NCBI GenBank assembly: GCA_030390025.1
Contig: CM059432.1
Location: 22,260,001 to 22,324,000, forward strand
DNA: 64,000 nt
Direction: 5' to 3'
Source of the DNA: Squalus acanthias
Taxonomy: Eukaryota
Under the pieces are notes generated by a model that was not told the origin of the DNA, made no database searches, and saw only the letters and a list, made by a program, of their open reading frames with translations. Each line of letters begins with the position of its first letter. Position 1 is the stretch's first letter. Positions 7,718 to 55,436 of the stretch are shown here, piece after piece. The position numbers and the translations under genes were made by a program.

Positions 7718-9423
7718 TGTAAGGTTTCCAAAATTTGCAGATCCCCCAAAACCTAAGGAAACGAAACTTTGGAACTACCTCAGAGTGATAATATTGTATT
7801 TGGGCCTAACCTAAGAGACTGTAAGACCAAAAACCAAGTTTTGGGATTTTAAAACTACGTCTGGGCCTGTAAAGGGAGAAAAGACTGTGAAGGAAGTTGG
7901 GTGCGACCTCTGTAAAAGCAGTTTGGGTATTGCAGTTAATTGCATTGTCTGGGGAACCGGGATGACCTCACTCAAAGCCCCAGCATGCATTAACATTTTG
8001 ACAATAGACCCCAGGAGAAGACAGTCCCACCCAAAATAACAGGCCCCATCAAACCGATTACAGGGCCCATCAAGAAACATGCATAATACAGAGCACCCAG
8101 GACTAGGCTATAGATCAGCCTAGTAACACAAAACACAAAACCAATCACCAGCAATCAGCCAAGGAGATCGACAGGATGCAAACCATCCCAAAACCCATTT
8201 GACACTTACAGAGCAGTTACTGGTAGCAGGCCTGCCAAATTCAGACAATGAACTGAACAGATTTGGCGGGTAGATAAGGCCATATTCAATGGGTAAGATT
8301 GAAGGCCTGTTAAAACCCAGTTAACGTGCTAGTAAATCGTTACCGATTTACGAGCCCGCCAAAACTAGACAATGAACTGAACAGATTTGGCGGGTAGATA
8401 AGGCCACTTCAATTCTGTATAATTGAAGGCCCTCCCAGCACACACCAGAGGAAGAAGAGAGAGAAACACCACAGTTCAAAGTCGTTGGGCCGAGCAGTCA
8501 GTCGCAACCGGTGGTCATCAGAAGGAAGAGAGACCAAGAAGAAGAAGGCCTGAGCTGAAAGCGAGTCAGCATCGCTCACCACTCAGACACACCTGAGTCC
8601 AGCTCGCAAAGACACCAACTCGACGGACCTCCAACAACGGCCCCAACACAGTCACCCAGAGCAACAAGCAGCAACAAGTCACCGACGGCTCCACGAGGTC
8701 AACCGACAGCCCAATCAAGGCCTAAAGCCATCACGGAAACTTAAGGCATCACAAAACCAACGACCGCGCATTACCCCCAACTGACTGGGTAATCGCAGGC
8801 CACTGCGACCAACAAAGACCAACTCCAGGGAAGAAAACCCGAAGAATCGCAAAGTTTCCACACTACAAACTACTCCTGACTTACCCCTGGGTAAGATTTT
8901 CCCCAAAGACTCTAAGCCCTACTGCTCAACTAAAGAAATTGGGTACTCACCAGATAAATCCATAACGACATCCTACCGCATCAGCGGACTCGCGAAGACT
9001 GACCAGAGACCCAGGTGAAGTCCTCTACCGCATATGGGGTACGGCAGACACTAACCGCCATAAACAGCGAACCCCAAAACCACGATTTAGCCCAACTGTC
9101 ACAGGATTGGTGAGCATTATCCCTGGTGCTTCAAAACCTAACTTAGCTAGTAAAGTGGGGTTGGGAGGGGTGAAGTATTGTTCTACTGTCATTTCCCTCG
9201 CTTGTACCGAAGTGTTCCCCACCTTTTAAAGTGATAAGAGTGTTATTATTTGTGTCTTACCTTTTAATAAAGATTGAAGTTCTTTCATCAAACTCAGTTG
9301 TCTGCTGCACCTTTTGTATCACAACCCCCAAATAAGTCCAAGGTCTAGAACCAAGGGAGTGGGAGCGATTCGAACCGCTCAGAAGTCAGAGGTAAAGCTG
9401 ACACAAAAACACCACCCCCTACA
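7718..9423 (+). mobile_element. Solo LTR, long family A (1706 bp)
   Basis: TGTA...TACA termini; 4-bp TSD GACC (7714-7717, 9424-9427); TATA-like TATAATT ~8418; AATAAA ~9266; block homology to 21798-23583. Confidence 0.88.
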
Positions 9424-21797: not shown

Positions 21798-23583
21798 TGT
21801 AGGCTTCGTAAAAACCCCCAGAAACTCGAATAGAACCCTAAAAGGGGTGAATTTTGGATCTTAACACAAATTTGGAATTATGGGAGCTAAATGAAGGAAT
21901 TTGAGGTCAAAACCTCAGTTTTGGACATTTTTAAGGATCAGGGAAGAAAACCCTGAGGAAAATGACTTTGGATAATACTATACCTTTAAAAGGGCCATTG
22001 GGAAAACCTGCAGTCACAGAAACAAGACAGGCTGCGGGGAAAGGTGTGCTGAGGCAGTGGACAGCTTTTGGTTTTGGGACCAAGCCAAGCTGTCTGGGAG
22101 ATGTTTGCACTGCAATCCAACCAAGGAGGAAGTGCCTCACCCAAAACCTCACAAACACATCCAAAAAAATGAATAAACCAAGACCCTTTTGAAATCCCCA
22201 GGTCCAAACAGAATGCTGGAAGTCTGAAAACAATTCCTAACAATAAAACTTCCAGTACACAGCTTCCCAGCCCATCATCCCATCAAAAACCAATTAGCCA
22301 AGTATCTACAGGAAGAGACTTAACGAGCCCGCCAAAAAAACCTAAGACAAAAGGAGCAAGATTTGGCGCATAGATAAAGACCCTGTCTAAATGAGAGACA
22401 TCGGAAGCCATCAGGACAAGTTAACATAAAGTTAAAGTCATCAGACTTAACGAGCCTGCCAAAACCTAAGACAATAGAATAAACAGGCCTCAACTGAAAC
22501 CTAAATCACTTCAACACGAAACCATTTTAGTGAAGCGGTTTTGGCGCAAAAAACACAATAGACCTGAACAGTATAATTGAGGGCCTAATCCCCCAAGAAG
22601 CAGCGAGTTGCACAGACGGGTGAGCCACACGACACGAGCAGAAGGAGAGACCAGCAGCTAGGCCACGAGGCAGGCAGACCCGAAGCGAGATCGGAGGCAG
22701 GACAGACAAGGCCAGGCAAGGGCTAGAGCTGAGACCACGAGCTGGGAGCGAGTCGGCATCGCTCAGTATACGGTCCAGCCCTAACAGACACTAGCAAAGG
22801 CCACTGGAAGCTGGGAGCGAGTCGGCATCAGTCAACACATGGTCCAGCTCCAGGAGGTACCGCCCCGACAGGCCTCCAACGCAACGAACCAACAACAAGA
22901 GCCGCCAAGGGCTCCACGAGGTAAACCGACGCTCCAAAGTACCGTAGAAACCAAGGCCCCGCGCAGCAACCAACCACCAGGTGACACCGAAAGACCAACA
23001 CCAGGAAAATCCGAAGACATGCAAGTTTCCACGCTACAAACTATTCCTGACTTACCCCTGGGTAAGATTTTCCCTTAAAAAACTCTAAACCCTACCTCTA
23101 CGGAAGAAAAATCGGGTACTCACCTGATAGAATCCAATACGCACCTTACCGCATCTGCGGACAGACCCAAACTGACCTGGAGTGCAGCTGGAGTCTTCTA
23201 CCACGTCTGGGGTACGGCAGGTCCCAACAACCAAAAACCTCAGTGAACCCCGAAATCGCAAAATACCTCAACTGTCAAGAACTGTTAATTTGTGAGCATT
23301 ATCCCTGATCCTCTGGAATTAAACTTAGCTAGGCAGTGGGATTGGGAGGGATAAGGGTTTTTGTATATTGTTATTCTCCCTCGCCTGTACCGTGTGTTTC
23401 CCAACCTGTGTTTAAGCATTAAGTGTGTTTTAAGTCAAAACTCTTTCATCAAAACCTGTTGTTTACTTCATCTTTGTTCGCAACCCCCAAATAAGTCCAA
23501 GGTCTAGAACCAGGGACATGGGAGCGATTTGAACAGCTCACTGAGTCAGAGGTGAAGCTGACCCTACCACACCACCCCCTACA
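21798..23583 (+). mobile_element. Solo LTR, long family A relative (1786 bp)
   Basis: TGTA...TACA; 4-bp TSD GTAT (21794-21797, 23584-23587). Shares blocks with 7718-9423, e.g. cctgacttacccctgggtaagattttccc and caacccccaaataagtccaaggtctagaacca. Confidence 0.88.
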
Positions 23584-53511: not shown

Positions 53512-55167
53512 TTTTGCATCCAAGTCCTCTTACATCAAATGCCATGACATTGATTGTAGCAGTATCAGAGGCGACTTTCACACCTGAAACTACTACTACC
53601 TTCATCAAGTCTCCATTGCAATAGTGGACTTGCAGCTGATAGTCAGCTATCCATTTGTGCTCCCGCCAGGTTTCACTGGAGTGTTTCACACCAGGCGTGC
53701 TTCACGTCAGAAAAGGGTTAAACTAGCTACAACGTTTCAAAATAGCATTACAGACCCAATTTAGGGCTTGTTAAGGGCTTTAATGGCCACTCCCGCCTCT
53801 TGGAGGTGGGAGTGAGTTGGGAACCCCGCGACTGATTTTGTCAAAATTGCGTGGAGGTGGGATGGAGTCGGGATGGGGTCGGAAACCCCGACCCCGCAAT
53901 TTTAACCCCCCACACGCCTCCAAACCCGACTCCATGGGTCATTCAAAATCCAGCCCCAGATGAGGATGAAGACCAGCCGCAGCACCAGCAGAACCATGAA
54001 CAACAGCAGCACCAACAGCAGCAGCACCAACAGCAGCAGCAACAACAGGAGCGCCAAGCTGCTGCTCACCCACCTGAAGCTGCACAGGCCAGAAGGTGCC
54101 AGCGCATGGAAGCCCGTTGGCACAGGAGATAGCCCCCAAACAGGGTCTACAGACACAGCTATGTCTGAGCAGCAGTGCCAAAGGCGGCTCCGACTTTCGC
54201 GAGAGGTAGTGGGTGACATCTGCGCAATGCTGCAACAAGACCTGGAGCCCAGAGGACCAGGTGGACAACCCTTACCAGTGGCCGTCAAAGTCACCACCGC
54301 ATTCAACTTTTATGCCTTAGGCTCATTCCAGGGATCAGCAGCAGACATCAGCGGCATCTCCCAGGCGGCCGCACACACTTGCATCACGCAGGTAACCGAT
54401 GCCCTCTTTGCCATCGCACACAATCACATCCATTTCACCAAGGATCAAGCAAGTGTCACGGCGCGTGCGGTTGGATTAGCTAATCTGGCAGGCTTTCCAA
54501 GGGTGCAGGGCATCGTTGACTGCACACATGTGGCCCTTAAGGCACCCCATCGCAATCCAGGTATTTTTGTCAACCGCAAGGGCTTCCACTCCCTTAACGT
54601 TCAGCTGGTGTGTGACCACAAGAAGGAAATTTTGCATGTTTGTGCCAAGTACCCTGGCAGTTGCCATGACTCCTTCATACTGCACCAGTCTAGTGTGCCT
54701 CTGCTATTCAGTCCGCCAGACCAACTTAATGGATGGCTACTTGGAGACAAGGGCTATCCCCTGAAGACGTGGCTAATGACGCCGTTGAGGAGCCCATCCA
54801 ACGAAACTGAGGAGAGCTACAACTCCAGCCACATGTCCACCAGAGCCATAATCGAGCAAACCATCGGTTTGCTGAAGATGCGCTTCCGATGCCTGGATAG
54901 ATCAGGTGGAGAGCCCTGCAGTACTCAGCAGCCAGGGTCTCCAGAATCATTGTGGTTTGCTGTGCACTTCACAACATGGCACAGCGTCGGGGCTTGCAGA
55001 TTCCTGAGGACCAAATGGCTCGTCACATATCCTCCTCAGATGAGGAGGAGGAGGAGGAGGAGGAGAGTGAAAATGAATATCTTGCAGAGGCCCATCAACC
55101 AGCGGCAGCAGTACGCGAGAACATTGCTGCCCGGGATGCAAGGAACGCACTCATCAGATTTGCTTAG
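53158..55167 (+). pseudogene. Harbinger (HARBI1-like) DDE transposase, disrupted
   Basis: [26 protein letters not shown]..; [60 protein letters not shown]; frameshift at ~54910 before VCCALHN. Confidence 0.93.
53195..53956. mobile_element. Harbinger MITE related to its host, inverted, inserted in the transposase 5' end
   Basis: TIRs GGGCTGGATTTTG / CAAAATCCAGCCC; TSD CAG; ends match the reverse complement of the host ends. Confidence 0.88.
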
Positions 55168-55436
55168 CCTAGACAATCAAGCACTTTTGCCTCGCAGCTT
55201 CTTACCTGAGCATCGACAATGGCCAAGAACCAACGGATTCCTAGCAATTTGAACACCATACTGACAATTGCAAGTAATCCTAAGCCCTCAATGTGGAAGT
55301 CCCATTCGCGAAATGACACATGCCACAACTACAGAAGTAGCCATCAGATTTTTTATTTACATTAATCATCTGATGGCTTTTTAACATAAAACATCAAAAT
55401 TCACCCAAGTGACTACCCTTGTGACTATTTGTGCAC

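Follow-up and report, generated by a model that had tools for sequence, protein, structure and literature searches.

A tRNA-like fold at the U5 tip of an endogenous retrovirus clade of Squalus acanthias as a probable part of the primer domain of the sense RNA

Why should the very end of a long retroviral LTR look like a tRNA, and on which strand does that likeness matter? The question is raised by a stretch of 64,000 nt of Squalus acanthias DNA (contig CM059432.1, positions 22,260,001 to 22,324,000, hereafter the window), in which the last nucleotides of an LTR, read on the minus strand, resemble an acceptor stem, an anticodon arm and a T arm containing a Pol III B box. A preliminary description, made from the letters alone, proposed a conserved antisense tRNA mimic or Pol III/TFIIIC element. 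The structure at the U5 tip is indeed conserved and selected, the stem changes of its T-like hairpin being compensatory across families, and the fold very probably forms part of a primer domain in the sense RNA, which means that the minus-strand reading probably addressed the wrong strand.

The tip lies in the first of two solo LTRs of the window (Table 1). LTR A is about 91-92% identical to both LTRs of one full element, while LTR B shares 74% identity with LTR A across the last 600 bp. The tip is assigned to U5 because a PBS lies 3' of the plus-strand tip and a purine tract 5' of the LTR start. A first look gave, for each tip, about 2,000 candidates in the 3.7-Gb genome. The full element encodes a zinc-knuckle gag, a protease, an RT, tether and RNase H and an integrase, and has env-like frames; Pfam recognises RT_RNaseH, RNase_H (after the RT) and integrase, in a gag-pol-env order between the LTR pair. 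One of the two env frames scanned has a weak, sub-threshold match to PF00523 (F0 fusion glycoprotein, E 0.037), and RT similarity among solved structures ranks foamy virus (155 bits) before MLV (118) and Ty3 (92). These properties fit a lokiretrovirus-like ERV clade, the RT being placed by similarity ranking and the RT tree containing no named lokiretrovirus sequence. Lokiretroviruses, as described in the main text of PMC7947760 and, for the BHIKHARI family, in PMC12067270, likewise have gag, a pol with tether and RNase H and an RT closest to that of foamy viruses; their env is related to the F0 fusion glycoprotein, to which the env-like frames here have the weak match just given.

Table 1. 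Positions of the LTRs and of the predicted elements around the U5 tip (window coordinates).
Feature	Position	Strand	Remarks
Solo LTR A, 1706 bp, TG..CA	7718..9423	+	4-bp duplication GACC at both flanks
Likely poly(A) signal AATAAA	9266..9271	+	From sequence; the U5 tip lies 3' of AATAAA
U5 strand of lower U5-leader stem	9318..9327	+	Partner 3' of the PBS, in 5' LTRs only
U5 strand of upper U5-leader stem	9338..9345	+	Pairs with the PBS end and the first leader bases
Putative linker anti-T-loop site, PAS-like position	9346..9352	+	6/7 complementary to primer positions 52-58
5' strand of outer stem P1 (acceptor-like stem of the preliminary description)	9355..9362	+	
Hairpin P3, 5-bp stem, 8-nt loop	9363..9380	+	Both-sided stem changes between families
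Block complementary to primer anticodon stem-loop	9379..9390	+	11/12 in subfamily A
Hairpin P2 (anticodon-like arm of the preliminary description), purine-rich loop	9385..9402	+	A clade only
3' strand of P1 and LTR end (integrase attachment end, by position)	9412..9423	+	
Solo LTR B, 1786 bp, sister subfamily	21798..23583	+	4-bp duplication GTAT

A genome survey with two PBS patterns returned 368 and 196 matches. Classification of 110 5' LTR loci left 73 in the A clade, once one copy had been moved to G, and assigned the rest to families C, D, E, F, G, H, I, J, K and L. RT identity to A, compared for C, D, G, H, I, J, K and L, is 74-90% for all of these except D (52-60%); despite the related RT, most of their LTRs are unalignable with that of A. 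In the RT tree, A, N, O, I, H and K form a group (98/100), with G beside J outside it. Counts of CpGs, B boxes and A boxes were made on an alignment of 66 of 75 loci (alignment A2), from which three segmental duplicates, four copies with deletions in the arms, one with a deletion in the leader and one misfiled G copy had been dropped.

On the minus strand, positions 9419-9355 read as initially quoted and fold into the three stems then named, at -27.9 kcal/mol (z -3.19; a single one of 200 shuffles does as well). At 23513-23579, the sister tip has the claimed layout, including a mismatch in the T-like stem; this mismatch occurs in 1 of 29 family-B copies and is thus private to that copy, and the B-box change of the same tip is found in 4 of 29. 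The plus strand forms the same three stems at -25.3 kcal/mol with a z of -3.99, so that the fold is equal or better as a U5 stem of the sense strand, an outcome that the preliminary description had itself set against its reading. G-U wobbles, which had been said to favour the minus strand, do so in the outer stem of subfamily A and not in general: across the 66 copies, the plus strand has them at least as often, with 10 cells versus 7 at the top of P1 and 19 versus 9 in P3 (29 versus 16 together), these being cells rather than events and leaving out the gappy outer half of P1, where the minus-strand wobble of subfamily A lies. Raw folding energy is lower for the minus strand in 16 of 20 tips, which counts for the initial reading.

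Conservation across families holds for one of the two arms that had been described. P3, the T-like hairpin, is present in the A clade, H, K and G, which fall in two branches of the RT tree, and between A, H/K and G both strands of its stem have changed. In all four it stacks directly on P1, the terminal stem, whose letters likewise vary from family to family. The distance from the P3 motif to the LTR end varies from about 20 to 135 nt, and the loop motif is missing from J, L, C, D, E, F and from Lys-primed loci (see below), and is therefore dispensable within the clade. The anticodon-like arm P2 fares differently: its stem is unchanged in 57 of 66 copies and shows no compensatory change, its loop ranges from 4 to 10 nt, and nothing corresponds to it in G, while H and K have unrelated hairpins at this place. 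Among four tip-deletion copies (L143, L183, L146 and L083), two share the loss of P2, one is without both arms and one without the P3 side; the deletion common to two copies suggests that P2 is dispensable.

The P3 loop is where the likeness to a tRNA is most precise, its minus strand being equal to the T-loop sequence of tRNAs (positions 53-61), as had been noticed. Variation in the loop is confined to two letters at the equivalents of tRNA positions 59-60, the remainder being constant. Genome-wide, a search pattern with the 8-nt loop is matched 17,970 times (control 3), one with the canonical 7-nt T loop 13 times (control 5). The extra G of the loop, kept throughout this amplification, breaks a canonical T arm, and its position would pair with primer G52. 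A canonical tRNA-type Pol III gene is not supported, given that the 7-nt form was never amplified.

These data bear directly on the proposal of a minus-strand tRNA mimic, whether as a Pol III product, as a substrate cut by RNase P/Z from an antisense transcript, or as a signal in strong-stop DNA. Such a mimic could draw on the continuous 12-14 bp stack of P1 and P3, capped on the minus strand by the T-loop sequence in A, H, K and G, on the folding of P3 in both minus RNA and minus DNA, and on the G-U wobble of subfamily A. The fixed 8-nt loop and the excess of G-U cells on the plus strand nevertheless speak against it, as does the want of a conserved anticodon arm. The preliminary description had conceded that this is not a canonical tRNA, and rightly: ARAGORN finds no tRNA anywhere in the 64-kb window, Rfam gives no match at the tip up to an E of 10, and a D arm and a 3' CCA are both absent from the tip. 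The A-box and B-box consensus sequences provide a further measure. No copy of 66 has a perfect A box 20-60 nt upstream, and 18 have one with a single mismatch, as against 20.5% of shuffles, which puts the A box at the level of chance. Moreover, 27 of 30 young copies like that of the window carry a T5 run inside the would-be transcript (T4 is found in only 6 of 66 overall). Taken together, the tRNA mimic appears very improbable.

The B box itself is a true family feature, as had been proposed, the pattern being intact in 51 of the 66 copies and met in families A, G, H and K. It could in principle act at the DNA level, by recruiting TFIIIC without an A box at about 18,000 LTR copies, in an insulator-like or integration-related role, for which its occurrence in four families and its 17,970 genomic matches would speak. 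A double-stranded site would not need a covarying hairpin around it, however, and the distance to the LTR end is variable. In addition, the CpG of the loop has decayed like its neighbours, being lost in 12 of 66 copies compared with 7 and 13 for the two flanking stem CpGs, which argues against protection in the host. Recruitment of TFIIIC is thus quite improbable. A literature search yielded no report of a tRNA-like structure in LTR strong-stop DNA, and, among the papers listed, no title or abstract start on an LTR element with a B box or TFIIIC.

A different partner for the conserved loop is indicated by the PBS. Directly after the LTR end lie 18 nt complementary to the 3' end of a host tRNA-Arg(TCG) (433 matches), and this complementarity identifies tRNA-Arg(TCG) as the predicted primer. 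In the conventional numbering of tRNAs, the PBS takes primer positions 59-76. The plus strand of the P3 loop (9370-9376), i.e., the strand opposite the B box, is complementary at 7 of 7 positions to primer positions 52-58, which adjoin the 18 nt taken by the PBS. Positions 59-60 of the primer, which face the two variable letters of the loop, are already occupied by the PBS. From this we infer that the P3 loop itself may pair with the primer. Two observations temper this idea: the loop cannot name its partner, because GGUUC is common to most tRNAs, and the loop position opposite tRNA A58 is conserved, which counts against pairing with the primer. A58 is normally methylated in tRNAs (m1A58), making a standard pair impossible.

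The sense strand offers another use for the loop, namely as a kissing-loop dimerisation signal, in which the self-complementary UUCGAA would pair two genomic RNAs in the manner of the HIV DIS. In families A, G and K, a hairpin loop presents a 6-nt palindrome, on the sense strand and in the correct leader region. The large H family, however, has a 4-nt palindrome with no compensating change and yet keeps the complement to the primer, so that the 6-nt palindrome is not kept by covariation. The palindrome is also A/U-rich, and dimerisation would leave unexplained a second, matching site in the linker. We consider this role unlikely.

This second complement to the T arm directly follows the U5-leader stem and reads GAAC(C/U) in 64 of 66 A-clade copies. 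An automatic linker test gave p<=0.05 in 7 of 16 representatives and a Fisher p of 2e-7 over 10 related families (shuffled U5 served as the null for five short loci), values that are optimistic because the families are related to one another; the site went undetected in M, I and C, and the signal in N, O, H, J and L was weak. Lineages with other primers allow a comparison. A related ERV lineage primed by tRNA-Lys(TTT) (104 PBS matches; 11 of the 30 loci L303-L332 show gag similarity) has the linker site in exact form in 13 of these 30 loci and with one change in 6, with 11 being without it; the site fits tRNA-Lys better than tRNA-Arg, and none of the 30 has the Arg-type loop motif within 130 nt. 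Another related lineage is primed by tRNA-Arg(CCG) (L338, L343 and L352; one matching host gene found). Of 20 stretches with a PBS for Arg(CCG), 3 contain the linker site, which fits tRNA-Lys as well or better, hence the tracking of the primer by the linker is partial.

The tip is also framed by two stems that join U5, the PBS end and the leader, and that place it inside the primer-site domain. In the lower stem, 95% of cells are paired, with U-A, A-U and G-U exchanging at one pair (40/13/6); in the upper stem, one pair is G-C in 45 and A-U in 16 of the 66 copies. Both stems together have 94.2% of cells paired versus 91.3 in shuffles (slid controls, 28-47%), and 51 double-change cells versus 18.9, some of the upper-stem changes corresponding to a one-base shift in subfamily M. 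Counted by pairs, double changes affect 7 versus 4.7 in shuffles, and 29 of 500 shuffles reach as high. Equivalent stems with other letters are found in G, H, J, K, L, E and F. As leader and U5 are needed in one molecule, these stems speak for the sense RNA. On the plus strand, the lower stem has 19 G-U versus 5 A-C cells, in line with this, while the upper stem has 1 versus 4, which counts against a sense reading. The partner leader sequence exists for 5' LTRs only; in the solo LTRs A and B the structure would be a leftover.

The sense RNA may thus use the linker, the P3 loop or both to hold the opened T arm of the primer during initiation, a function that we hold to be reasonably likely. Occupation of primer positions 59-76 by the PBS would free the T-arm strand, which could then pair with the linker site, in the way suggested for avian retroviruses and the HIV PAS, and/or with the P3 loop site; the latter could be brought by the 12-14 bp P1/P3 stack to the distal end of the duplex formed at the PBS. 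The minus-strand "tRNA" would then be the mirror image of the primer complement. The best reading of the available sequences is accordingly a docking domain like that of avian retroviruses or the HIV PAS with an extra anti-T-loop site displayed in a loop, and most likely a variant of a known retroviral priming design, whose unusual part would be this second site.

Several known systems invite comparison. In avian sarcoma/leukosis virus, U5 interacts with the T-psi-C loop of tRNA-Trp (Aiyar et al., 1992, as cited in PMC3185550). Both that virus and the shark LTR have a U5 complement of the primer T loop, 5' of the PBS and in a frame of U5-leader and terminal stems; the shark LTR, known from sequence, differs in its primer and in having two complements, one in the linker and one in the loop of a covarying hairpin on the terminal stem. 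The PBS segment of HIV-1 contains the PAS, the TLE and an A-rich loop, according to the accounts in PMC11181671, PMC3185550 and PMC1865047, and is similar in that several helices of the sense RNA surround the PBS and the primer is additionally paired through its T arm and possibly its anticodon loop. In contrast, the HIV PAS lies in a stem and the TLE mimics an anticodon arm on the sense strand for LysRS, whereas the tRNA likeness of the shark LTR is on the antisense strand only. For Ty1 and Ty3, as summarised in PMC5371799, element RNA also pairs with parts of the primer beyond its 3' end, but these sites are located 3' of the PBS or at the 3' end, unlike the shark sites, which are in U5 next to a PBS of full 18-nt length.

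A complement to the anticodon arm of the primer may add to this picture. The 11/12 match in subfamily A explains the tRNA-like look of P2 in the LTR A copy; it shrinks to 6-7 nt in sister subfamilies, with weak statistics, and across families the case for anticodon-arm pairing is weak, p being 0.02-0.13 in 7 of the 8 families and 0.5 in G. The resemblance could alternatively be one of descent, the A-clade tip having arisen by antisense capture of a tRNA-Arg or of a tRNA-derived SINE head and now serving as a mere scaffold for protein binding or attachment-end spacing. The tips of 7 A-clade representatives do show an alignment to tRNA-Arg, at p 0.003-0.06, and one copy of the SINE head is matched at p 0.003-0.15. 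However, tRNA-Ser(GCT) scores about as well (the control set comprised three other tRNAs, a pattern search for more host tRNAs having given SINE heads only), a second SINE copy is not significant, G, H and K share P3 with no such similarity, and a scaffold does not need an invariant loop. Capture with a scaffold role is in our view unlikely; an origin by capture and a function in primer docking are not exclusive and can both hold. The abundant host SINE head (L269-L298) can be aligned to tRNA-Arg(TCG); its alignment to the U5 tip of the A clade is weak. Intron-bearing tRNA-Arg(TCG) genes are found with tRNA-Ser(GCT) in tandem arrays with a period of about 1.6 kb (L114-L124).

It may also be asked whether the tip is double-faced, docking the primer on the sense strand and acting on the minus strand as a mimic of the top half of a tRNA or as a TFIIIC site. 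Were this combination true, to which we give little credence, one ERV clade would have seeded about 18,000 tRNA-like signals, in the form of small antisense RNAs or insulators, in the genome of its host. As it stands, the finding gives no reason to recognise a new class of Pol III element. If primer docking is correct, the extra pairing between U5 and the T arm known from avian retroviruses and HIV would also be used by the sister lineage of all sampled retroviruses, and would be an old feature of retroviral priming. The clade provides a natural comparative set in this respect, its members using three different primers and carrying two anti-T sites, one or none.

Relatives of the clade were also sought outside this genome. 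A metagenome scan with a single RT query returned none, and a scan with an RT alignment brought up a single distant ERV in four copies, at 39% identity and with no LTR that could be used; a search of viral contigs found no relative either. The main text of PMC7947760 names five vertebrate classes as hosts of lokiretroviruses, cartilaginous fish not being among them, and makes no mention of tRNA, PBS, sharks or cartilaginous fish; the large clade described here may extend this known host range.

Other features of these elements were noticed along the way. The U3 of LTR A contains an internal duplication of about 79 nt (8230-8307 and 8354-8431, 86% alike). A 28-nt block identical between LTRs A and B, in the region 8877-8951, contains a short hairpin (8880-8895); it and a second conserved motif (8945-8951) match the 5' splice-site consensus on the minus strand, i.e., complements of donors on the sense RNA, and no GT..AG joint at these motifs was seen among the matches listed for assembled contigs covering the LTR. 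Several families include elements without pol in which gag and env-like frames are retained between LTRs that are nearly identical (L134, L138, L189, L194, L196, L207 and L208), the fusion-protein part being preceded by an Ig-like domain. Elsewhere in the window, a 448-codon open frame (53906-55252) lies beside a CAG-rich repeat.
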